NCBI GenBank assembly: GCA_013265495.1
Contig: MU058009.1
Span: 1,056,001 to 1,120,000, forward strand
Direction of reading: 5' to 3'
Length of the DNA: 64,000 nt
Source of the DNA: Vicugna vicugna
Lineage: Eukaryota
Below are positions 7,771 through 63,344 of the stretch, piece after piece. Made by a program: the position numbers and the translations under genes. The first letter of the stretch is position 1, and each line of letters begins with the position of its first letter. The notes below the pieces were generated by a model that was not told the origin of the DNA, searched no databases, and was given only the letters and a program-made list of their open reading frames with translations.

Positions 7771-9205
7771 CTTTCAAAAAAATTGAAGAGGAAGGACTAC
7801 TTCCTCTCGTTCTTGGAAGCCAGTATTATTTCAATCCCAAAACCAAAGAAACTATGAGAAAAGAAAATTACAGACAAATGTTCTGTATGAACATAGATAT
7901 AAAAATTCTCAATAAAGCACTTGCAAGCATAATTCAGTAAGATATTAAAAGGATTATACATCATGACCAAGGGAATTTATTTCTGGAATGCAAGAATAGT
8001 TCAATATATGAAAATTGATCAAAGTAATACACCACATCAATAGAAGGGGAAAAGTGATCATCTCAATTAATGCAGAAAAAAAAACTGACAAAATTCAATA
8101 CTCTGTCATTATAAAAACACTCAAACTTGAAATAGAAGGAAACTACACGGCATAATAAAAGCCACGTATGAAAATCCCACAGTGAACGTCACACTCGATG
8201 GTGAAGGATTGAAAGATTTCCTCTAACGCAGTAACAAAGCAAAGATCTCGGCTTTCGCTGCTTCTATTCAACACAGTACTGAAAGTTCTAGCCAGAACAA
8301 TTATTCAAGAAAAAGAACTAAAAGGCATCAGGATTTGAAAGGAAGAAGTAAAATTACCTCTGTTTGCAGATGGTATAATCTTGTATGTAGAAAACCCTGA
8401 AGATTCCACAAAAGAGCGATTAGAATAAATGAATTCAGCAAAGTAGCAGGATGCAAAGTCAACATACTATAGTAAGTTGCATTTTTACACACCATAAACA
8501 ACCTGAAAATGAAATTATAAGAAAACAACTTCATTTACAATAACAACAAAAAGAATAAAATACTTGGGAATTACCTTTATCAAAGAGGTGAAAGATGTAT
8601 GCAACAAAATTATAAGAAACTGATGAAAGAAACTGAAATACAAACAAATGGCAAGCTATCGTATATCCATGGGTTGGAAGAATTAATACTGTTAAAATGT
8701 CAATATTATCCAAAACAATCTATAGATTCAATGTAATCCCCATGAAAATCCCAATGATATGTTTTGCAGGAGTAGAAAAATTCATCCTAAAACGTACATG
8801 GAATCTCAAGGGATCCTGAATAGCCAAAACGACCTTGAAAAAGAGCAAACTTGCAGGACTTATACTTTCTGATTTCAAAATGTACTGCAATGCTATGATA
8901 ATCCAACCCAAGCAGGTGACATTGGCATAAGATAGATATGGAACAGAATACCGAAACCGGAAACAAATTCTTGCACACGTAATCGAATGATTTTTGACAA
9001 GGGTGTCAAAGCCACTCAATGGGGTAAGAACAGCCTTTTCAACAAACTGTGAATAGACACATGCGAAAGAATGAAGCTGGACCTTTACCTAACATCACAT
9101 ATAAACTGACTTTACTTCAATAAAAAATAAATTAACTAAAAATGGAACAAGTACCTACATATAACGCTTAAAATGACAAAACTCTTAGAAGACAATTTAA
9201 GACCA
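7771..9205 (+). mobile_element. L1 ORF2 remnant (RT domain), disabled
   Basis: Encodes degenerate NYR..MNID.KILNK, IHHDQ, LFADGII (8360-8380, equivalent to LFADDMI) and IYRFNVIP, with stops and frameshifts. Confidence 0.95.
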
Positions 9206-9219
9206 AACGTCCCAACACT

Positions 9220-10914
9220 GGATTTAACACTCAGAAAGAAATCAAACAGTCCAATTAAAAAATGGCCGGAAGACCTAAACAGACACTTCATCAGAGAAGA
9301 CACGCAGAAGGCAAATAAGTACATGAAAAGATGTTCAGCATCATTTGTCACTAGAGAAGTGCAAATTAAAACCACAATGAGATACCATTACACAGAAAGC
9401 TGACAATACCAATTGTTGCCAACGATGTAGAGCAACAGGAACTCTCATTCATTGCTGGAGGGAATGCAAAATGGTGCAGCACCGTGGCAGACTGTTTGGA
9501 AGTTTTCTACAAAGCTAAACATATTACTATACAATCCAGCAAGTGTGCTTCTAAGTATTTACCCAACTAATTTGAAAACATATCCATATAAAAACCTGCG
9601 TATCAATATTTATTACATTTTTCCCATAATTTCCCCAAACTGGAAGCAACCAAGATGTCCTGAACAGGTAGATGGCTGAACAAATTGTGAATCTTAAGTG
9701 CATGTTATTAAGTGAAATGTCAGTTTTAAAAGTCTACATACTTCATGATTCTATTTATATGAAACTCTGGCATAGGCAAAACTATTGAAATGGTAAACCA
9801 AATAGTGGTTGCTGGGAGTTTAGGGGAAGGTTTAGGGCTAAGGAGATGAAGATCAGGAGATTTTTGTAGGGTGGAGAAACTATTTTCCTTGATACCCTAA
9901 TGGTAGACACATGACACGCTGTGCTTGTTCAAACTTATTCAACTTAATTCTATAAAGAGTGAAGCTCAATGTACACACGTTTTTTAAACAATCACTTAGA
10001 ATGTTGGAGAATCTCAGGATGGAACACAGACTGTGAGTTTTGAGACGTCTAAGGTATTACAAATGTTTGAAACATCCATACTGGAGGGATTGGCAGGGAA
10101 AGGGGCTGAGCAAAGTAACTTTGGAAACAAGTGGCACCTGTGATACACGTGACAAAAAGGACTGGTTATACTGATGTCTTCTAGTTGATAAAAGTGTTTT
10201 TCTTTTTCCTCTCATGAGGTTACAGGTTAACAATTCTGAAAAGTCTACAGTAATTGCACAACTAAGTATAGTATAGGGATCCAGGTTTCTTGCTGTTGGA
10301 GCTGGCAGTTACAGAATAAACAGGTAAGAAAAGGGAGAAGGCTAGAATAGCCCATGTGTTAATGGGTTTCTGTTGGAGACATTAACGTCCACCAATGTTT
10401 AACTTAATGTAGATACAGACAGATACACGAGCAAATGCATATGGAAATATGTGTACGTGGAGGGCTAGTACATACACATAGATTCCCCAGCTCCGTCAGC
10501 TGACCTTCCGCCCATTTTTTTAAAATTGATGGTACCCCAGTAAAGGGCAAAATCAGTGCCTGGATCTTGTTTTCTAACACCAGTCTCCCATAAAAGGGAC
10601 AGGGCTTTTGGATAAATGGCTCCTTCCAGGACCAGGCACGAAACATACGAGATGAGCCTGGAGCATGCCGCAGTGCCAGCGAGTAAGGAAGTGCTCAGAG
10701 CAAATGAGCAAAGAGGAAAGCAAAAATAACACAGGAATAGGGGACTGTCACCGGGACACAGAAGCCAAATAAGACAGCTCCCAAAGGCTGAAGCTGGAAC
10801 AAGTCGAGTCATAAAATAAATAACGTACCATTGGACTGCAACTCAAGCATGAATAATTATCCATGAGTCCAGACTGATGTAAATAATTGAATAAAAATAC
10901 GTGGGAGAAGAGAG
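9220..10914 (+). mobile_element. L1MC-like ORF2 end and 3' UTR, first half
   Basis: The ORF track shows [32 protein letters not shown] (L1 ORF2 C-terminus). The long 3' UTR contains gatgagcctggagcat...gtaaggaagtgctc...ccatgagtccagactgat, typical of L1MC3/4. Confidence 0.85.
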
Positions 10915-12439: not shown

Positions 12440-14220
12440 GTGTCTTATGTAAGCCACATGGTAATCACAAAGCAAAAACCTAGAGTAAATAGGCAAAAAT
12501 AAAGGAGAAAAACAGCACGCCGCCATGGGGAATGACCAATTTACAAAGAGAGGCAGAAGCTCAGGGAAAAAGAGACAGTGAAAATACAAAACAGTCAAAA
12601 AGCAATTAGTAAGATGGCACTAGTGTAAGTCCTTACATATTGACACTCACTCTCTAAACTGAGATGGATTGATTCACTCTAAAGGCACAGAGTGGCTAAA
12701 GGGATAAAAACACAAGATTCAACTATATGCTGTGCACAAGAGATACACGTCAGCTTTAAGGATGCACAGAGGTTCAAAGTGAAGGGACAGAAGAAGATAT
12801 TGTGGAAACCCAAAGAAAACAGTCTGCAAGTAAAAAAATGATGACAAGAGACAAAGAAGGTCATTATATAAGGATAAAGAATTAGAGAATTCAAGCTGAT
12901 TTCAAAAGCAAAAACATAAGTGGATCAAGAGATCAAGAAGATATAACACTAGTAAATTAAAAAATATATATATATCCAATGTGGGAGCGCCTACATGAAC
13001 TAAGCAAATACTAAGATACCTGAAGGGAGAAACAGACAACAATACAACATAATGGAACTTCAATACTCAACATTTACAATGGATAGCTCATCAGACAGAA
13101 AGTCCACAGGGAAACATTGGACTTGACCCATACATTAGACCAAAGGAAACTAACAAACATGTATGGAACATTCCATCCAGCAGGAGTAGAATTCACATTC
13201 TTTTCAAGTGCACATGAACCATTCTCCAGAACAAATCATGCATTAGGACCCTGAACAAGTCAACAAATGTAAGGAGACTGAAACTATAGTAATTATCTTT
13301 TCTGATCGCAATGGTATAGATTCATCCCTCTATAGATTCAATATAATCCCTATCAAAACTCCATAGAAATAGAAAAAATATTCTAAAATTCATATGGAAC
13401 CACAAAAAAAAAACCCAAAGAGCCAAAAGAATGATGAAAAAGAAGAACAAAACTGGAGGCATCACACTTCCTGATTTCAAACTACACTACAAAGCTGTAG
13501 TAATGAAAACAGTGTGGTACTGGCATAAACATAGACACATAGCCATTGGAACAGAAGAGAGACCCCCAACATAAACCCATGCATACAGAGTCAAATAATA
13601 CTTGACAAGGGAGTCAAGAACACTCATGGTAAAATGATAATCTCTTCAACAAATGATGCTGGGAAAAGGATGAACACATGCAGAAAAAATAATTTAGACC
13701 CTTTTTTTACATCACTCATAAAAATAAATTAGAGATGGTTTGAAGATGTAAACAGAAGACCTGATGTTTTAAAACTCCTGGAAAAAACATAGGGAAGAAA
13801 CTCCTTGACATGTGTCTTGGCAATGATTTTCTGGATATGATACCAAAGCACAAACAACAAATGAAAACAAAGGGGGGAGGCTACATTAAATAAAAAGCTT
13901 CTGTATGTCAAAAGAAACAATGAGGAACCTATGGGATGGGAAATTATTTGCAAACCACATATTGGTTAAAGAGTTAATATCCAACTTATTTAAAGAACTC
14001 ATGCAACTGAAGAACAATAGCCATCAGATTAAAAATTAGTCAGAGAAAGTAAACAGACATTTTTTTCAAAGAAGAAACTCAAACGGCCAACAGTGACATG
14101 GAAAGATGCTCAACATCACTAATCATCAGAGGAATTCAAATCAAAACCACAGTGAGATGTCACCTCAAACCTGTTGGACATGGCTATCATCAGGGAGGCA
14201 AGAGATAACGGAGTTGAGAA
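12440..14220 (+). mobile_element. L1 inter-ORF plus ORF2 (endonuclease fused to C-terminal part, RT deleted)
   Basis: ATG at 12614 is followed by EN-like HRVA..IKTQDSTICCAQEIH and FSDRNG at about 13300, then a jump to YRFNIIPIK at 13331 and on to the C-terminal region. Confidence 0.9.
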
Positions 14221-14712
14221 GGATGTTCATCCCATACCCTCTGCTCATTACTCTGCCTGGAAATTTTTGTTGGTTTACTGTATTGGATTTGAAGGGTGCC
14301 TTTTCTTGCATAGCACTGAGTTTCAAATATCAAAAATCGTTTGCTTTCAACTGGGAAGAGCTTGGTACAATCATGAAACAGTGATCCTGGGCAGCACTTC
14401 TTCAGGGATTCAGATGCCCCCCCACAATATTTAGAGAAATCCTGGCAATAGATTTGAGGGAACTTCAACTCAACAAGGGAGCCCTGCTCCAGGATACGGA
14501 TGATGTTCTGATTGTTAGTAAAACAAAGGCCACCTCAGACCAGCATACAGTTTCGGCTTTGAACTCTTGGTTGAATAAGGCTATAAGGTGTTCAAGAGGA
14601 AAAAAAAAAAAAAAAAAAAAAAAACACCCAGCATTCTCAGCTCTGTTAAACACTTGGGTTTTGAACTCTCACAAGGACAGAGACCTGCTGGCTCCCTGAC
14701 AGAAGGGAAGCT
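14221..14712 (+). mobile_element. ERV1 (gammaretrovirus-like) pol reverse-transcriptase fragment, disabled
   Basis: Translates to PYPLLITLP..WFTVLDLKGAFSCIAL..FAFNWE..LLQGF..PTIFREILAIDL..LLQDTDDVLI (YVDD equivalent at 14493-14504)..GYKV..VKHLGFELSQGQR, with stops and frameshifts. Confidence 0.92.
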
Positions 14713-15229: not shown

Positions 15230-17290
15230 TACTGAAACAGTATTCCATCTTTCCCCATTGCTTTGAAATATGGCCTTTATAATTCTCTAGATCCCCTGTG
15301 TTCTTGTGTGGATCTGCTCTTCCCCATTGTTCTATTTTTGTCTCAGTGACAACTGTTTATTTGTTACAGTTTAGCAATAATTTTAACGTCTAGTAAAGTG
15401 AGCTCCTTCTTATTCTTGTTTTGAAGAAATTCTTTGGCTATTCTTGTTTCTTTTTCTATTTAATTTTAATCAACCTTAATTTCACAAACATACGACCCAT
15501 CAGAATTTTAATGGATTCCATTAAAATTATGTAACTTAGAAAGAATTAAATTCTTCTGAATATTGATTCTTCTTATGCAGGAAGAGGGCATATATTTCTA
15601 CTTATACAAGCCTTGGATTATTACCTTCAGTAGCGTTTCAGTTTTAATCATAGAGTTTCTGCAAACTTCTAGCTATATTGCTGAGTATTTTAGTATCTTT
15701 TCTGACTTTGTTCCTGGCATCTCATCTTTGCATTTATATCCTAAGTAATTTTTATTTGAACTCAAGACAGCTGTTTTCCAATCATCTCCTGTAATTTCTT
15801 TAAGATTCTTAGTAACTCTTTTGTTGGCTTTCTTGAGATTTTCATGTTTACAATAATCACACACTCTGCAAATGACCAAAATTTCCCCGCTTTTCTAATT
15901 TTCTCCATAATTTAGACTGGTTGTGGCACAGCTGTGGATTCAGGATCTCCTGTCCCCATCACCCTGAGGGGGTCACTTCTTGATCTAGTCTTTTTTCTTT
16001 ACCTGATTTACTCCCTAGTTTTAACTGCACACACACACACTCCAGTAACTTTTTCTGGTAAAGGGGGTTTGGGATATTTTCCAATATTTTTCATGTTTAA
16101 CATATCTTTACTTCCCTTCCACTGATGTTTGAGTTGGGATAGAATTTCCTTTTGGATTTTGAAGACATTTCTCCATTGTTCTTCATTTTCATTGTCACTA
16201 TTGAAAAGTTCATTGCCTTGTGTATTTTTTTTCATTTTTTTGTGTATAATGACCTTTTTACTCTTTCTGGGAAGCTTTAATATTTTAATTTTTCCCCTTT
16301 TCATTACTTTCTGGATGGTGTGGCTTGGAGCAGAACATATTAAAACCTAAAGTGCTGAGTTAAATGATTCAGTGGGTCATTTCAAACCACTATTCATATT
16401 CTTTAATTCTTAATTTTCTCCATATGCATCTGTAAATTTCCTCCCCACTGTTTTGTTTGCTGTTTTGCAAACGCCTTTAAATGATACACCTGACTTACTT
16501 CATTGGTTTCTGATTTCCATGTCCCTTCTCATTTACTTTCTTTTGCCTCTTTGTTTGCCGTCTTTTGATATGACCTCACAGTTACCATCCAATCCTTCTA
16601 CTAAACATTTTATTCTTGCGATCATTTTTAAAAATTTATTTTCTGTGTTTCTTTTTTCATAGCATCCTCTTCTTTCTTCATAGTGGCCAATTTATGGCCA
16701 CTATGAAGAACTAAGTTGTTTTCTGTGATTTTATTTTTCCCCCTTTGGCTATAAATAGTGTGTCCATGTCTTCAAAGTTTTTTCCTCTGTTCTTTTGGTT
16801 TGTTTTTCCTGTTAGATGTTTCCTGAAATATGCATTAACCACAGGTTATATTTAAGAGGAAGCCCTTAAAGTTAATTGGAAAACGCCTACTGGTACAGCT
16901 GAAGCTGAGTGTAAGGATGGTCCTGGCGATCATCATGCAGGACTGAAAAGAAAGGGACACACCGAGTGGCAGGTTGAAAGGAGAGTCTCACAACTTGTTA
17001 TGTAGATGTTCGCTTAATCCTTTTATCTCTGCTAAGGGGCCTGCTTCCTCTGCTGTGTCTGTTGTCAGAGAGATATCTTGTCCAGTCTTCCTGAGGATGG
17101 ATCCCTGGTCTGCTGCCAAGGGGGGAGTGGTTCCTGGCAGCTGAGAAAATGGAGTTTACTTCTTTTTGTCTAAAGGCTTAAAACAAATCCTTCTTTAGTT
17201 AGCCCTATACTTTATTCCCATTTTTAAAGGTGCCTCCTGCCTTCAGTCCCTGAGACTTTCTGCTGCTCTGCAGGGTGAGTTCCGCGTGTA
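15230..17290 (-). mobile_element. Old L1ME-like element (ORF2 pieces, ORF1, 5' end)
   Basis: T-rich, with reverse L1 ORF1 phrases (ttgaagacatttctccattgttctt...tattgaaaagttc) and a 5'-end-like aggtgcctcctgccttcagtccctgag. Confidence 0.7.
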
Positions 17291-17365
17291 CCTCAATATG
17301 CTTAGCTTAAGAAGGGACACACAGGACAAACTGAGTATCTATTTGTATAGAGTCTGAAAGAGAAT

Positions 17366-18493
17366 CCTCTAAAAAAAAAGCCTAAAGAAATACAGAGCTA
17401 AGCACAAAGAACTTGACATGGGAATCCCAAACCCACAGGTTGGAGAGCAGGGGTTTTTATAACCAAGAGTGGCTGCTACTTAAACCCACCAGTAGCTCAT
17501 TACGCTAAGCACGTGTCTAAGTGTTAGGACGAAAGATGTAAAAACCTTGAAGATCTGTTTCTGTGATTTCTGTAACCCAGTGAGGCCAAAACAGCAGTTG
17601 TTTAGGACCTTTTTTAAAGTGCACCACAAACGGGAAAGAACATTGTGCACACCTGGACATAAAGTCCAACTCGAAATTTGAGTGGCCTAGAATCTCCAGG
17701 AGGCTGTTACGTTTCAGGAGCGGGGATGGAGAAGGTGTGGAGACCAGAGGACATCCGGGACAATTGGAGGAGGTTCAGCTGCATCTGGCAGCAGCCACGC
17801 CTCGTGGGAACTGCCACGGCCAGCGGGGCAGAGGTGAGCACCAGTGGGCACAGCTGCTTCTGACATAAGAGCCCAGGGAAACTGCAGGCCAGGGCAGAAG
17901 CGATACCTGGCAAAGTGGTATGAGTGCCGCGGAAGTAGGTTTTTACCTAAACGGATGTGCTCAGTGACCTATCTTCTTCTAGAGATATTTGCCAGAGACA
18001 TAGCCAATTAGGGAAGGCCATGGAGAATTTGTGCTACATGATACCGCTTGAGGTATGTGGACTGCAAAGTAGACTATGTGCCTACAACCTCAGCCGCAAT
18101 CCAGGTGGTGACAAGCCCCAGGATTTTAAGGAGGGGCTTTCGCATCTGAATGCGGCGCCTTAAGCTGTTGCCAGGTTTCCTGGCTGCAAAGAAACGCCCT
18201 ACTCATGTCTGCCCCACTTGGTGAACAAGAATCCTCTGAGTGCATGTGTTTGTCTTCAAAATAAAATGTTTAGTGCGCTTGTAAGAGGAGGCCAGAGAGC
18301 TCGCTAGCTCTCCTTCTGCCATGAGAAGACACAGCAGGAAGTCAGCTGTCTGCACCTGGAAGAGGGTCCTCTCCGCACCCAAACATGCTGGCACCCTGAC
18401 CTCAGACTTCCGAGCTCCAGAACTGTAAGAAATAAATTTCTGTTGTTTATAAGCAAAAAAAAAAAAAAAATTTTTTTTGCTACCATTAAAAAG
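17366..18493 (+). pseudogene. Candidate decayed processed pseudogene of unidentified parent, interrupted by an MLT1 fragment
   Basis: GC/CpG-richer non-repeat-looking core at about 17690-18230; a long basic frame broken by TGA/TAG; AATAAA at 18260-18265; short A-run at 18488-18492; 10-bp direct repeat gaaagagaat at 17356-17365 and 18494-18503. Confidence 0.45.
18270..18470 (+). mobile_element. MLT1A/B-like MaLR LTR fragment lacking U5 and ending in poly(A)
   Basis: gccatgagaagacacagcaggaag...ggcaccctgacctcagacttccgagctccagaactgtaagaaataaatttctgttgtttataagc followed by A16 (18455-18470). Confidence 0.88.
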
Positions 18494-19590
18494 GAAAGAG
18501 AATTTCCTCCTATAACCAATTTGCAGGAACCAGCCGAGTTTGGCAGGTCAGATTCAGCATCCAGCAAGACTGAACTGACTGCTCGGTTGGTGTGCCAGTG
18601 CTGCAGGGCAGCCCCTGCGCGGGTCCCCGGCCGCTGCCTGCACTCTTCCAAGCCCAGCTTCCAAGTCTCAGATCTGTTCGCTTCAGGGCACCAAAGCTAT
18701 TGGATTGCAGTCCTGACAGGTGTCGGAAGTTGGGGAGCATCGGGTATGCACAAGGTGCAGGTAAATTATGTAGGCCTGCAGATATAATGGGGCGTGTTAA
18801 ATAGGAGAGAAATAATGATCAGAGGGAAAAGATAAGAATGCAACAATCACTCACAAACTTTGATGGCAAAGTAGAAACTCTGCAGTGTCCTGGGGAGAAG
18901 AACCACTAGGGTGACGTGTGGGGGCGAACGTCATGTAACCCTTGCTATTCAAACTGGCGCGCAGACACTTACCTCACACGAAAGGCTGAGCCGTTAGCTG
19001 CTGTGGTCCCTGTGCTGTGCGGGTGCCTTTTCCTCTGCACTAATGATACCACTTTCCACAACGGCAACAGATGCTCATAATTTAACCCATGACCAGTTCA
19101 GATAAAATCATGGAGGCCAAGGATATTCAGAAGCAGCACCAGATACCCTACCTCTCAGAGCTCTTAAATGTGTGCAGACAAAATTAACTGTTAGAGATTA
19201 TCAACATGTCAGGACGGGCTTTCTTAATGCACATTATGACTGCAGAAATATCAGGTGTGTAAAGTAAAACTCGGGACCCCACCAGTTTGAGTGCCCTAAA
19301 ATGATCTTTAATTACTTCCAAATATTTAAAAATCAGTATCATGTTCATGAAATATCTAGAAAATCTCCAGAACAGTTGGAAAAAGTCAGCCCTGCACACA
19401 TGTTCTGACATGAAAATGATATACAAGAGGTAGAAATTACATGGAAATCACATAAAATAATTTATACCATCTATAAACATTGGCTGAAGACGGGTAGGTT
19501 GAGATCCAAGCCCTCAATGATGTTAAAATCTGGAACGCGAAGCTGATTATTCTAAGTACCTTAAGAGAGGTACAGAAATTGGGATGAAGT

Positions 19591-20248
19591 TGAGACAGGA
19601 AGGGGGCAGGGCACAGCCATTCAAGGAACGCTACAGCAATCAGCATCAAAATGGTGAAGATTCAACCTCCAGGAGGCCTTGAGGCTCAAGATGGTGGGAG
19701 ATTTGACTTCTCCCAGACCTTGAGCTTCATTATAAGCTCATTGTAATATATCAACATGGTGACTAACACGCCCACAGGCGCCTTGGCCGTCCCAAGGCTA
19801 GCCACAAAAGGTCAAAGGGTGGGAAATGGCCAACTTCCTGGGAATCCCAGCCCCTTCCCCAGGCTAGTTAGACTGACCCTTCCACTTATTAGCATATGAA
19901 GCCACTGAGCCCATAAGAATTGTCAACACAGTGCCTGGGGGCAGCTGCCTCCCTCTCTCTCCCTCTCTCCCTCTCCCTCTCTCTCTCCCTCTCTTTATCT
20001 CTCTCTCTCTGTCTATGGAGTGTGTACCTACTTTTAATCTGAGCATCCAACCCCCACACCCTGTGGCCTTTCTCTTGCCTTTCGATGTATCTCTCTGAAT
20101 AAACCTACCTTTACTCAAATGTGGCTCGCTCTTGAATTCTTTCCTGCATGAAGCCAAGGACCCACACCTGGTGGGGCATGTCCCAGGGGCTCAACCAAGG
20201 CCTGGGACATGGCCCTCCTCACGTCCCACATCCGTTTTTCCTGCAACA
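19591..20248 (+). mobile_element. ERV1-class solo LTR (MER41-like), 658 bp
   Basis: TG...CA termini, perfect 4-bp TSD AAGT (19587-19590 and 20249-20252), AATAAA near 20100 followed by U5-like ttgaattctttcctgcatgaagccaagga, and an internal CT microsatellite. Confidence 0.92.
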
Positions 20249-21639
20249 AAGTGTCCATACAGGTGATTATCCATCATAGCCCGGCCAACTGACAGCTTCT
20301 TATACAGGGTTCCCCCAGTGTGAGGGTTTCTTAGTGTTGGAAGTGGCTCTGTCTTCCACACCAGCTGGCTTATACTGTCATTATAATTCAGTATGATTGC
20401 TGCATATTTGAGATATTTCATTTTGTCTTTTAATAGCCATGCTGTCATAGGCACATTTGCTCATTGGTCACTCTTTGTACCCTTCCTATATCTTGAGGGT
20501 TTATTTTTTTTCCTTGAATGTCAAGAATTGTTCATCTAAAGAGCTTCTTGCTCACATGATTTTTTTTAATAAGGTTTTCATTTTGAATACTGGTCATTTA
20601 AGGGTCACTCAGGGATTTTGTTCACAACATGGTAGTAACTGTTTTCCAGGAAAAACTACTAGGTCTAGAAAATGAAGCTGTTTTAAGGAAGCCCCCCACA
20701 GGTGATTCTAAAGTGCATGCCTTTTGTTTAACAAGTGGATAATTGGCCCTGCAGAGAGGTGAAGGCATTCATTTAGCATTTCACCACCAGCTCCTGCACA
20801 GGCCAGGACTAGAACACAGGGCCCCCCATTCACAAACTAGTTTTGTTTATCCCAGAATACTTTAAACAAAGACAGCTGGTTATTTCTCCTTCAGAAAGTC
20901 AGAAGGTGGTGAGAATGCACTGGTTCTCTCAGCCTTCGAGCCCTGCTCCTTGGATTTTGACCTCGTTAGAGCTAGTCTCCTAAAATGTACCATTTGTTTG
21001 GTCTCTTAAATCAGAACTTCCCAGGGCTCCATTCCTGGGCTCAGTTTGTGACTCTTCAAATCGTTCATCAGGAATTTTCTGCCGAGAGCCAGCGCCTTGT
21101 ACCCTGCACCAGAGAGCTTCATTTGTGCTGATTGCCCTGAGTTTCACATAAAAGTCATTAAGAATTCTGTTTCAGTGAATAAAAGAATGTAAATGAGCTA
21201 ATTATGAGCTCCACTTACCTTACTAACCCCGTGCATTATATAATCATTAATGCTTTCACATGATCTGTTCCCTGGAAAAACCAGGAAGATGGAAAGCACT
21301 ATTGTTGAGAAAGAAAATAGTGGTGAGGTTTATTCTGTGGTGGCTTTTTGTTTCCCTTTTGGGGGAGTTAGGGAGGGTCTTTTAATGTAAGCTGTGAAAA
21401 AGACAGCTTGGGAAATAGCTGTGCTTTGCAGCTTTAACCCCCACCTACCCTTTGCATAAATTAACTTCAAGTTACACAGATTTCTCATAACAGCGTTTCA
21501 CACTTGGAAAGCAACACTCATCTGAAACACTCTTTAAGATCCATCCATATGATTGTTTTCACTTACTGGGCAAATGCATCTTCCCACATAACATACATTG
21601 GCTGTTGAGTTTTAGCAGGATGATGCTGGCTGCTTAGAA

Positions 21640-36874: not shown

Positions 36875-37070
36875 GGGTGGCGCTTCCAAGTGAGGTCCAC
36901 GAGTGATGTGCATCAAAATAGCTGGGATGCTGGGACGCTTCTCAATACCGATTCGTAGGCTTCACTCCCAGTGGGCCCCGTCAGGATCTCTGAGCCTGAG
37001 GCCAGGCAATACGCCTCTGGACAATTATTCCAGGTGGTTCTTGTGTACAATAGCATTTGAAAACCACTTG
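36875..37070. mobile_element. hAT-Charlie MITE (MER5-like)
   Basis: Ends ccaggtggttcttgtgtacaatagcatttgaaaaccact and begins gtggcgcttccaagtgaggtcc. Confidence 0.6.
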
Positions 37071-37114
37071 TGGGACAGCGCAGAGCTCAACAATAGAATT
37101 GCTCTATTTGCTGA

Positions 37115-37560
37115 AGGAGCGAAACCCCCAGACGGAGAACAGGGAACCTGCGAATCCCCGCGGTGCGGCTGGTAGACCAGGAGCCGGCTCTTCCTCACTC
37201 AGGCCGCGGCTCCTCTCCCGGCGATGCCTCCTGCTGTCATCGTGACCCGTTCGCAGGGCTGCTCCTTCCGCTCTGTTTGACGGAGAGAGGCTTTCAGGGT
37301 CCCCAGGAGCACGAGAAAATGCGCTTCCTTCCTTACCGCCCACCCACCCTCCCCGACGAACATCATCCTTAAACTCGAGTTGCTTTTCCTCAGGGAACTT
37401 CGCCTCTCCTGCCTTATTCTCAGCCCCAGCCCTGCGGCCCTGGTTACTGGACTTGTGAGTTCGTCTCCGAGGCGATGGGGGCTCTCGACCTTCACGAGGG
37501 TCTCTTTATGCTGCTTTTGCAACATCCGTTCTCACTGAGCCCTGCTCCTCCCATCTCGAG
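37115..37560. promoter_or_regulatory. Small CpG-island-like segment
   Basis: About 31 CpGs counted by eye in about 445 bp of GC-rich sequence, against a CpG-poor background. Confidence 0.6.
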
Positions 37561-37999
37561 AGCAAGTGATGTTCATCCTCTTCCCAACACAGCTCTGCCT
37601 CCCTGGGTTTACGTGTGGCCTGAGTTCAGCACATCCCGGCCTCAGGGTGTAATTCCCTGACATTTTAAAGTGGGCACTCCGCTCTGCTGCAGGTAGGGAG
37701 CCAAAATGACTTTTTACCCTTGTGTGAGGAATACCACAGCTCTTCTGCAGTGCTGACAGAAGGACTGGAGGGGACGGATGGCAGGGGACGCGACGTGGCT
37801 GTGTCCTGATGGAGGCAGAAGTGAGAGGCGTTGGTTTAATTCAATTCTAGGCACAGTTCAGAAAAAGCAGCAGGGAACTGGATAAAGGCCTCGGACTGTA
37901 GGCATCTAAAAATAAGTCCTCTTTGTCCTTGTAATTGAACTTGCTGAAGACGCAGCGCGGAATATTCACTAAGCATGTGGGCTGTGGTGTCTGTCAGCT

Positions 38000-38185
38000 T
38001 ACCTTGGTTGGAAATTCCGGCTGAGCATTTACAAGCTGTGACTTTGGCACGTTTTTTTATATCTTTGTTTCTCAGTTTCCTCTTCTGTGATGTAAGACGC
38101 GTCATTATCCCGGATGCATGAGGTTGTTTGGGGGGTTTAGCTGAGATAGTAAACTTCAGTATCTGGTACATAAGTCCTCAATGAG
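38000..38185 (+). mobile_element. MIR SINE
   Basis: agctgtgactttggcac...ctcagtttcctcttctgtga...atgaggttgttt. Confidence 0.75.
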
Positions 38186-47585: not shown

Positions 47586-50254
47586 CCCAAGAGCAGTGCC
47601 TTATTTCTTTTCAGACGTCAGACGTCTCTAGGTGAGAAGTGTATGAGTTCTCTGGTAGACCTTGTGGGGTTGGGACCTCATTTCTATCTTACAGAACGTC
47701 TGTAGCATATGAACGCGAAGACGTCTCAGTCTCACTTTGCCGATGCACCGTCTTGGGAATGTCACTGAGGAACAGCATCCTGGGTTTTAATATTTTTAAA
47801 TACATTCCTCTGTGAGCTCTGCCTTCTTCCTTCCATATTCCCTGATGGAAAATACCTGGCGTCCCATGCGATCTGCGGCCGCTGCACAGCTGAGCTAGGG
47901 AGCATCAGAACCAATGGCCCATGGATAGAGAGACGTTTCTTTCTTTCTCTATGGACCAATAAAAGAGATGCCGTCTGATTCTGGGCTAAACTATCAAGAC
48001 CCAGGCAGATACCGTAGCTCCTTGTCTTCCCCCTCCATATGTTTCTTCTTCAGGAATCTAGATTTCCACTATTGTGCAAACCCTGAGATTCTTGAACAGC
48101 TGGCAGTGAATGATCCTCATTGCCAAGGAGACTTGAAAGAAAAGGAAAACCAACAATTCCAATTCTGAAGACATAACCCTCCCATCAGCTTTCATGCAGG
48201 AACCACCCTCATGCTGGCTTTCTGTAGGCGCCTTCCACCCGTGGGAGAAGAGGTTATTGTGCTGGGAGTGCTGGGCATCGGGGAACGCTGCTTTGATTAT
48301 TTTATCTAGAAAAATCGAAGGTCACCTTGAACATTAGTTTCAAGGTCTAGAGCAGCATAGTTTACAAAAAAAAAAAATGGAACAGCTGCCTTCTTGTTCA
48401 ACACAAAGGAAGCAAAAATCAAACAAAAACAGGCAAATAAACTAGTTCGATATTTCAGAGAGCTCCAGTGAAACTGGCACCTTTTAAATGTATCAGTAAA
48501 TCACATTAGAAACCGGAGATCATGTCTAAGGCAGAGAGGTTGTGGTGCCCAGGCGGGGGCTGTCTTCCAGGCCGGATGGCGATTCCATGCATGCTGACGA
48601 AGAATCTACCAGCTCAGTTTTGTTCAACTGGCAGTCCGTCCCAGTTTGAGTCCATTCAGAAATATTACACTGAAATATCAGTTTTAAATAAGCTTCATAG
48701 GTGATTGCCAGGGTTGGTTTAACATTTTATTTAAACTTTCCATGCTTAGCATGAATTCACTCGATAAGCCTTCTATTCTGTAGGAGACAGAAAAGGAAAT
48801 GGGGGCACCCCAGTTAAAAGGAATTGTTCTTATAATTACTTCATGATCTCTGCATCTTATATGTCTTTACCTTGCCTCTCAGTTACATTTTCACTATCTC
48901 ACTCCCCTAAGAAAGAAATAAGAGGCATGTTTGTGCACCCTAAAGAGAAAAAATGTAGGGTGGGGGTAAAAATCTCTCTTCAAATGAATTGAAAATAAAA
49001 TCTGTGTGACGTCATCATACCTAATACACTGTGGCAATAGTACTTTTGTCCCGGTAGGAGTTTAACCATTTGCACGTCTTTTCAGTTCCCTTAAGTCACT
49101 TCAAACAACAAACAGATAAATAAAAGATTATTGGTTTCTTCTCCAGGAGAGAGCTGGAGAGATTCCTCATTTTAGGATGAGAGAACACTGAAAGGCCGAT
49201 GATTGGCAAGGGTCCAGAAACAGGTTTGGGTTTTATGTTCTTTTCGGGCCTGACACCTGGTTCAGGGAAGGTCTTTCTATCCTTCGGTTTCCATCCCTGC
49301 TTCTTTATTGCAGGAAAAGAAAGACACTCGGGTACCTCCCGTGTCCTGAGCTTTTGTGAGCGTTCTTTACCTTTGGGAGTGGTCATGTTGTCACAAAGCT
49401 TAACAAAAACAGTTTCCCAGTATTCTCTAGTACATCAGCAGAGATTTTTCTTGAGACTTTAATGGGCTGGAAGAATAAAGGAGTCATGATGTTCTACAGG
49501 ACCCAGAATTGATTTTTTCCAATCAACTGAGTCTCCCCAGCGCTAGGGATCCCGTGGGCTGGAGCAGCAGCCCCATGGAGTGCTGGGGACTGCTCCTAAG
49601 AGAACCAGGCTCTGAGTTGGTATCAAGTACATTAGCCATGTGGCACAGTGTGCCCAGACCTCCAAACGCCTCCAGCTTGGTGTTTTATTTTTGTTTTATG
49701 AATCCAATTATTTGTAAATTCTGAATAGCCAAACATTGATTTGTTTTGGTTCATTCACAACAGTGCCTAAATTTATCCATGTGTTCTTCTCAAATCAACC
49801 AGCTAGATTTTCCTTATTTATACTAAGTTAATCTAATGTATAAATGATTTTGAAGTTGAAGGAAAAACTATATCCTTTGAGTATGTTCTCCCATTTGCTG
49901 TATAATTAAAAGTGGCAAATGAGATCTGTGAACCAATGTGATTTCTTGAAAATAGAAATAAGAAAAATGTGGCATTAGAAATAAAGTTCCATTTTTCCCT
50001 AGCCTCCTTTTACTCTGTCTCCAAATTTTACTGAAAGCTTTAAAATTAGTATTCAAGATTATTAAAAGGGCCATTAAAATGAGGGAAAAAATTATGCTGT
50101 GGTTTCTGTTCCTTTGTATCAAATCATAAAGCTGATACTTCAATTTATGGCCATTCAGAGATATTTATTTAGTTGCCTGAATTTGCTTGGTTCAAAATAT
50201 TCCCATTCTGCAATCCCAATAAACCCATATTTGCCATCGATGTTTTTCTTTTTC

Positions 50255-62285: not shown

Positions 62286-63344
62286 ACTCCCAGGCACAGA
62301 CAGCCAGAGTTACACCAACAAGGCAAGGTATCTGACTACTTCTCATGGTCAAATAATGACCATAAGAGAAAAGAGCTATCATTACCATGGTCAGCGGTTT
62401 TCCTAAGGAAATTCTAGGGTTCCTACCTGATTGTTCCATGATGATGTCTACCTCTTGTCAAGACCCACCTGTGCATACAGAGCTTTCTAAAATCACTTTA
62501 ACATTTCCCTTTTAAAGGAACTGACAACCAAGATTAAAATAAAATTTTAAAGAAGGCTTCTAATATAAAGGTCAAAAAACAAAGGAAATATACAGGAAAA
62601 AATTAGACGAAAGGGAGAGTCTAGAGAGCAAAATAAAGCTTCACCAGAATCACTAATGTCCCCATTAATATACTCAAAAATGTGAAAAAAAAAGAGTACA
62701 GTCATAAAATCAGAACAAATGCTATAAAAGGAGCATTAATAGAATAAATAATCTTGGGGTTGAAGAATATGAAAGATATTAAATCTTCACAGAACTGTTA
62801 AAAGATAAAGGCAACTTTCTCAGAAATCTGAATAAAGTGACAGAGTTGAAGTGATAAAAGAAGAAAGAGAATTAAATTAAAGCATCAGTCTAAGATTAAT
62901 AGGAATTCCAGACAATCAGAGAATTAAGAAAACAGAAGAAAATTATTCAATAGTTTTAAAAAATCCAACTTGAGAGGGGCCACCAAGAACGCCACACAAT
63001 AAATTTTTAAATAGACCCACATCATTAAAAAAAAAACTATAAAAGTAAAACCTATGTCACAAAATATTAGGACACTAGGAATAAAGACAATAACCTTTAA
63101 AAAATGCAGAGAAAAACTATACAAAATAGATCAAGAATCAAAATAGCATTACATTTCTCAATAGCACCATTGGATTATAGAACATAATGGAACAAAGCTT
63201 TAGTAATTCTCAAAGGAAATTATCAACAACCAGAATTCTGCCTCTGGAAAAAACTGAGAAGGAAACACCATTGTTTGAAGCAATTTGACAATGAAGTGTG
63301 AGAGACACCCGCGTAGGGTTGAGAAAGGTATTTTGGGGAGGTCA

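Follow-up and report, generated by a model that had tools for sequence, protein, structure and literature searches.

The segment at 17366-18493 on the + strand is read here as a possible old, dead processed copy of some RNA, whose 3' end contains a nested, probably younger retro-fragment that ends in an LTR; this is a tentative reading to which we give somewhat less than an even chance. The outer insertion is suggested by the order of its parts: a direct repeat, a 0.9-kb body, AATAAA, 18 nt, an A-run and the repeat again. The 64-kb stretch of DNA analyzed, referred to below as the window, is repeat-rich and of mammalian type, with a GC content of 0.30-0.49 per 2 kb, and no Rfam match was found anywhere in it. 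The 905-nt body was found to be contained in 17 of the 24 listed sequencing runs, at 0.92-1.00 of 89 sampled words. These 17 runs carry four organism labels and belong to seven studies, and three of them are possibly the source of this DNA. Such high word content under four organism labels indicates that the body is a real, fixed sequence rather than an assembly artifact. The RNA-seq run X18 (labeled reproductive system metagenome) contained 0.20 of the 89 body words, and runs X19 and X20 contained 0.08 each; these figures represent word sharing only and were set aside as evidence on expression or tissue. Nothing on this locus appeared among the papers listed for camelid retrocopies or MLT1 retroposition.

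Layout of the outer and inner candidate insertions

The candidate outer TSD is a 10-nt direct repeat, GAAAGAGAAT, with its left copy at 17356-17365 and its right copy at 18494-18503 (both +); a third copy occurs at 62863. When one 2-nt gap is allowed, the repeat extends to 17369 and 18509 and agrees at 14 of 16 positions, as would be expected from a decayed longer TSD, which argues for the outer insertion. Between the two copies lie the body of the putative older copy (17366-18271, +), which is without a family match in six frames, a first AATAAA (18260-18265, +), which is the candidate outer poly(A) signal and overlaps the site where the inner piece would have inserted, and the rest of the outer 3' end (18476-18493, +), where an A5 tail remnant at 18488-18492 is followed by one G. 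The initial annotation had reported the 10-mer at 17356 and again after the A-run, and AATAAA at 18260; both were recovered, with the second copy of the repeat at 18494 and another AATAAA at 18431. It had also placed an A-run at 18488. The run is there, but it comprises just five A's, and a G stands between it and the repeat. A poly(A) signal is usually spaced 10-30 nt from the tail. The outer spacing falls in this range only with the inner piece taken out: without 18272-18475, the distance from AATAAA at 18260 to the A-run at 18488 is 18 nt, as had been claimed, and this restoration of a canonical distance speaks for the two-insertion reading.

The ends are less persuasive when taken singly. 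An outer tail of five A's and a G is under the criterion of eight A's given in passages of a study of retrocopies (bioRxiv 10.1101/2020.06.07.139212); it is possible that the tail was shortened by decay with age. The left insertion site, CT/GAAA, is two transitions from TT/AAAA. Per 100 nt, the GC content was found to be 0.41-0.64 in the body, 0.29-0.49 in the left flank and 0.39-0.65 in the right flank. The GC rise does not stop at the right repeat, since the flank beyond it matches the body in GC content, and this equality counts against the outer insertion. The right flank at 18500-19100 is both GC- and CpG-rich, with GC up to 0.65, and no Pfam family was found above cut-off in its six frames. 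The window's highest-CpG kilobase is located elsewhere, at 37001-38000 (GC 0.55, 45 CpG, observed/expected 0.6), and is a possible CpG island.

Near 17300, the base skew turns from T-rich to A-rich, a change that is consistent with the outer insertion; the T-rich flank that ends there is presumably L1-like. Old L1-type DNA is presumably also found further upstream, where two related stretches, 8719-9383 and 13329-14158, are 64-73% identical and are taken by us to be L1-like ORF2. A broken remnant of a retroviral-type reverse transcriptase was observed at 14229-14600 on the + strand (Pfam RVT_1, E = 2.2e-9, one in-frame stop). It adjoins an L1-like stretch upstream and is followed by A25 at 14600-14624, and the 150 nt after this run gave no Pfam match.

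The outer hallmarks were compared with a control set of 390 runs of at least five A's, taken from both strands of the whole window, and each of them was found to be common. An exact match of at least 10 nt located 200-1500 nt upstream accompanied 9 of the 390 A-runs; that of the outer unit is one of these 9, and genuine TSDs may be present among the rest. AATAAA lay 10-36 nt before the run in 14 of the 390, and the gapped repeat score of 14/16 was equaled by 7. Both AATAAA and a 10-mer match were observed at one other site in the window, and the A-run counts lead one to expect about 0.25-0.3 chance coincidences of signal and repeat per 64-kb window. At ~15335 on the - strand (48662-48666 on the reverse complement), AATAAA occurs together with a run of five A's and an upstream match of 10-11 nt; this site either shows how readily the hallmark set arises or is another old insertion. 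Scans for retrocopies call for caution on this point, the combination of a 10-nt repeat, AATAAA and five A's being near chance in 64 kb of mammalian DNA. The retro-insertion with these ends that had been proposed is plausible, but its hallmarks are near chance and its tail is shorter than eight A's.

The inner piece at 18272-18475 is the best-supported insertion of the locus, on account of its own AATAAA, its pure A16 tail and its 8/9 flanking repeat. The piece itself is 183 nt long (18272-18454, +). TGTAAG lies at 18424 and AATAAA at 18431; 18 nt past this signal, the piece gives way to the candidate poly(A) tail (18455-18470, +), a pure run of 16 A's. On the left, the candidate inner TSD reads AAAATGTTT (18263-18271, +) and is preceded by AT; the right copy, at 18467-18475 (+), matches it at 8 of 9 positions. 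This repeat stands in low-complexity A/T sequence, and the insertion site, AT/AAAA, is one change from TT/AAAA. The purity of the tail suggests that the inner insertion is younger than the outer one. The piece is presumably MLT1/MaLR-LTR-like, and no second copy of it was found within the window by BLAST. The initial annotation had termed it an MLT1 insert; rather than a plain LTR insert, its signal, tail and repeat indicate a second retro-insertion, one with a poly(A) end. A separate stretch at ~19640-20249, which we assume to be a solo LTR, includes a CT microsatellite (19949-20014) and an internal AATAAA.

According to passages of PMC5538554, MaLR LTRs carry TGTAAGY and AATAAA near the 3' end, and ERVL LTRs bring a poly(A) site. 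In the inner piece, which has TGTAAG at 18424 immediately ahead of AATAAA, the Y position is an A. L1-processed LTR transcripts, as described in part of PMC5016936, end at R in a truncated LTR with a tail and are inserted at a TT/AAAA-type site. The layout of the inner piece (signal, 18 nt, A16, repeat) resembles that of these transcripts, and both the left outer site and the inner site are near TT/AAAA as given in the same part of that source; both likenesses are consistent with the reading of an old processed copy with a younger one nested in it.

The arginine-rich frame and searches for protein relatives

The initial annotation had tentatively assigned the outer unit to a small basic-protein mRNA. 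The peptide that it quoted was confirmed to be the + frame of 17721-18221, and the frame as a whole extends to 18224, with the closing TGA at 18222. Four internal stops were counted instead of the three claimed, namely TGA at 17835, TAG at 18009, TGA at 18039 and TGA at 18147. The TGAs had been placed in Arg-rich contexts. The frame is indeed Arg-rich, but the TGAs are flanked by AGG/GCA, ACA/TAC and ATC/ATG, respectively, so that only one TGA has an Arg neighbor. TGA makes up 46% of the stops in shuffled sequences, and three TGAs out of four stops are thus unremarkable. No stop depletion beyond chance was observed: when the best + strand stretch of 167 codons was taken from each of 500 dinucleotide shuffles of the body, 60% reached four stops or fewer. 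The first ATG after the stop at 17688 is the one that encodes the internal Met in PKRMCS, leaving the 5' half of the frame without a start codon, and the 108 codons upstream of the frame contain 6 stops. Base composition by codon position showed no significant periodicity (p = 0.39), and of 61 GC-rich windows, 41% were more periodic; a rough codon-usage score, calculated with human frequencies, favored no frame.

The amino acid content of the frame is less ordinary. It contains 24 Arg, compared with 14.3 +/- 3.3 in shuffles, and has a net charge of +23, compared with 7 +/- 5; this level of Arg and charge together has P = 0.01 (best of three frames, 1000 shuffles). At least 24 Arg were found in 3 of 357 GC-rich window-frames, of which this frame alone is also strongly basic. 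CpGs fall on codon positions 1-2 in 10 of 16 cases (P = 0.016, or 0.048 after three frames), and within 17838-18221, 8 of 10 CpGs start a codon and lie in Arg codons. The stretch was chosen after the fact, and the Arg and CpG-phase signals are therefore hints. A G-rich second position, Arg and TGA are also obtained when another reading is viewed in a shifted frame; the frame neighboring the Arg-rich one has eight stops and no family match. These two signals constitute the entire case for a basic-protein mRNA, against which stand the missing homologue and the missing start codon. It is unlikely that the outer unit represents a fossil mRNA from a gene, unannotated or since lost, for a small Arg-rich protein of ~130 residues (17838-18221) that is absent from current protein catalogs; the copying would have taken place in the germ line of a common ancestor with a ~14% diverged lineage. 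A non-coding RNA, or a 3' end, is the more likely source, and the coding version accounts for about a quarter of the reading in which an old processed copy is present.

Protein searches were performed with X at the stop positions of the queries. In word-indexed searches, the quoted peptide gave 0 of 113 candidates at E <= 1 (lengths 91-293) and the second + frame 0 of 387 (lengths 166-529). A phmmer search with the whole Arg-rich frame against 1.84 billion representatives returned two matches, P0003 and P0004. P0003 was rejected as an artifact: it is a repeat protein, and its E-value accumulated over 17 weak matches to 40 residues. No relative of the quoted peptide was found by these searches, the match of P0004 lying outside it. 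This full phmmer search covered the Arg-rich frame, and the other five frames were covered by Pfam and PDB; an uncurated parent in another frame is possible. No Pfam family scored above cut-off in any of the six frames, and the Arg-rich frame was also without an NCBIfam match. Two sub-threshold Pfam matches were judged to be chance: Me-amine-dh_L (E = 0.39), and Prokineticin at 18145-18261 (+, frame of 17365; E = 0.019, 15.7 bits against a cut-off of 21.6), which overlaps the end of the Arg-rich frame and has no similar match in PDB.

The best PDB match of the Arg-rich frame (E = 0.19) was due to a Gly-Ser linker, and no histone was present among its 7 matches up to E = 10, nor in Pfam; the other five frames gave 0, 1 (E = 1), 0, 0 and 0 PDB matches. 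Suspected likenesses to H2B, short H2A variants, DPPA2, ZAR1L and THAP were unsupported in Pfam and PDB. The ESM Atlas returned no usable match for two open stretches, one of them the longest open part of the Arg-rich frame and the other from a different frame, a result uninformative either way, and viral contigs gave 15 pattern matches, of which 0 were confirmed. Overall, no disabled ORF homologous to a known protein was found by any of these searches in the Arg-rich frame or by Pfam and PDB in the others, and the suggested origin from a germline gene received no support from any completed test.

A diverged homologue and the competing explanations

The sole homologue, P0004, is a singleton, a 62-aa ORF on one 3,645-nt Logan contig. 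When used as a query it retrieved only itself, and it matched no Pfam or NCBIfam family; its DNA was not recovered in scans of metagenome contigs, where 364 pattern matches were obtained with 0 confirmed and a DNA pattern that matches the window itself gave 0. The P0004-homologous stretch covers 17335-17500 (+), passing through three window frames by two frame shifts and spanning the left repeat. Residues 7-16 agree with 17335-17364 at 7 of 10 amino acids, the best of 63,899 + strand positions, and residues 7-13, which lie wholly upstream of the left repeat, require 4 minimal changes, a level reached by 2 of the 63,899 positions. The agreement is 21 of 29 amino acids at 17382-17468, and residues 52-62 correspond to 17468-17500 in the third frame with 9 minimal base changes (null mean 19). 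The homology reaches 21 nt or more past the left repeat, with a weaker match extending to 39 nt (P = 0.05, first six codons). Twelve minimal changes in 39 codons give a roughly estimated divergence of ~14% at non-degenerate sites, which looks like neutral decay and is far beyond that of the four organisms of the word-matched runs.

The presence of left flank, repeat and body together in P0004 implies that the insertion is old, that its 5' end was miscalled, or that there was no insertion. The lineage-specific origin suggested in the initial annotation is weakened by so diverged a relative, colinear across the left repeat. Colinearity of the segment with its flank in an outgroup had been named there as evidence against a retrocopy; such colinearity is partly found in P0004 and would count against a retrocopy unless the insertion predates the split. 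If it does, the history may be reconstructed as follows. LINE-1 proteins would have inserted a copy of the 3'-terminal 0.9 kb of some polyadenylated RNA at the site before the split from P0004's lineage, making P0004 the orthologous, filled site. The copy would then have decayed, with its tail shrinking and its repeat losing two bases. A later RNA ending at the poly(A) site of an old LTR would have been copied into the A/T-rich signal region, and target-primed reverse transcription would be the mechanism of both insertions. The single true homologue given by phmmer, as opposed to the many that might be obtained with a high-copy repeat, and the fixed presence in 17 runs are in line with this history; the former is a weak indication, the library's coverage of mammalian DNA being uncertain. 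Weighing on the other side are the unbroken P0004 homology at the left repeat, the commonness of each outer hallmark and the tail of just five A's; moreover, no parent, paralogue or empty site came to light in the searches. The element would be without function today.

What if no outer retrocopy exists? The sequence at 17300-18271 and from 18476 onward would then be old single- or low-copy DNA, either anonymous or what is left of a lost gene or lncRNA, a decayed last exon carrying its own AATAAA; the 10-mer would be chance, and the inner piece would be the sole insertion. This explanation is doubtful, yet still a serious contender, as the P0004 homology crosses the left repeat, the expected number of chance coincidences of signal and repeat is appreciable and one other was found, the frame shows neither stop depletion nor codon periodicity, and Pfam and PDB gave no homologue in any frame. 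It has more difficulty with the signal, 18-nt spacing, A-run and repeat all being correctly ordered and oriented, and with an Arg and CpG-phase signal that is unexpected for anonymous DNA. The same P0004 alignment, which begins at or before 17335, could instead place the 5' end of a retrocopy upstream of 17335, near ~17300 where the T-rich flank stops; P0004 would be a parent or sibling, the true TSD would have decayed and the 10-mer would again be chance. This version is improbable: with up to two mismatches allowed, no other 12-mer from the 3' junction was found to have a counterpart in 17000-17350, and the 3,645-nt contig of P0004 suits genomic DNA equally with mRNA.

A single event has also to be considered, in which a transcript that ran past the first AATAAA and ended at the poly(A) site of an MLT1 LTR was copied whole, with A16 as its tail, or in which the LTR is an old in-place remnant with an expanded A-run. 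A16 is the only convincing tail of the locus, and a poly(A) site is present in ERVL LTRs according to passages of PMC5538554. A TSD would be expected right after A16, yet the TTTTGCTACC found there occurs once in the window, and the 8/9 inner repeat and the restored 18-nt spacing are left unexplained; a single event is improbable.

Known systems and significance

In passages of bioRxiv 10.1101/2020.06.07.139212, published retrocopies have TSDs of 7-40 bp, and a tail is scored at eight or more A's. The outer unit resembles LINE-1 processed pseudogenes, as far as these passages describe them, in having a repeat in the 7-40 bp range, AATAAA followed by an A-run, several stops and no visible intron-like gap. 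It differs from them in its A5 run, below the eight-A cut-off, and in the diverged homologue extending over its 5' junction. The inner piece is similar to the HERV-W processed pseudogenes described in part of PMC5016936 in that it ends soon after AATAAA and has a poly(A) tail, an AT/AAAA site and a short repeat; unlike those elements, it is only 183 nt long, contains no internal retroviral sequence and is presumably MaLR/MLT1-like, not ERV-W. Its source could be any host transcript polyadenylated in an old LTR, of which it would be the 3' end. A further parallel is the pseudogene recycling by MaLR/ERVL LTRs outlined in passages of PMC5538554, where, as here, an LTR piece and a (candidate) processed pseudogene lie side by side in the same orientation. 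In contrast to that system, the LTR piece of this locus is located downstream, is 5'-truncated, apparently arrived as a tailed RNA copy, and could supply a poly(A) site, not a promoter.

Overall, the locus looks like ordinary nested retro-debris, or like near-chance hallmarks on old DNA, with the Arg-rich frame as a small loose thread. An old processed copy with a younger one nested in it, if true, would carry little weight, nested retro-insertions being ordinary mammalian debris; it would record two germ-line RNAs. Should a parent prove to have the Arg-rich frame open, the finding would have moderate weight, as a missed or lost basic-protein gene would then be revealed and dated by its copy.
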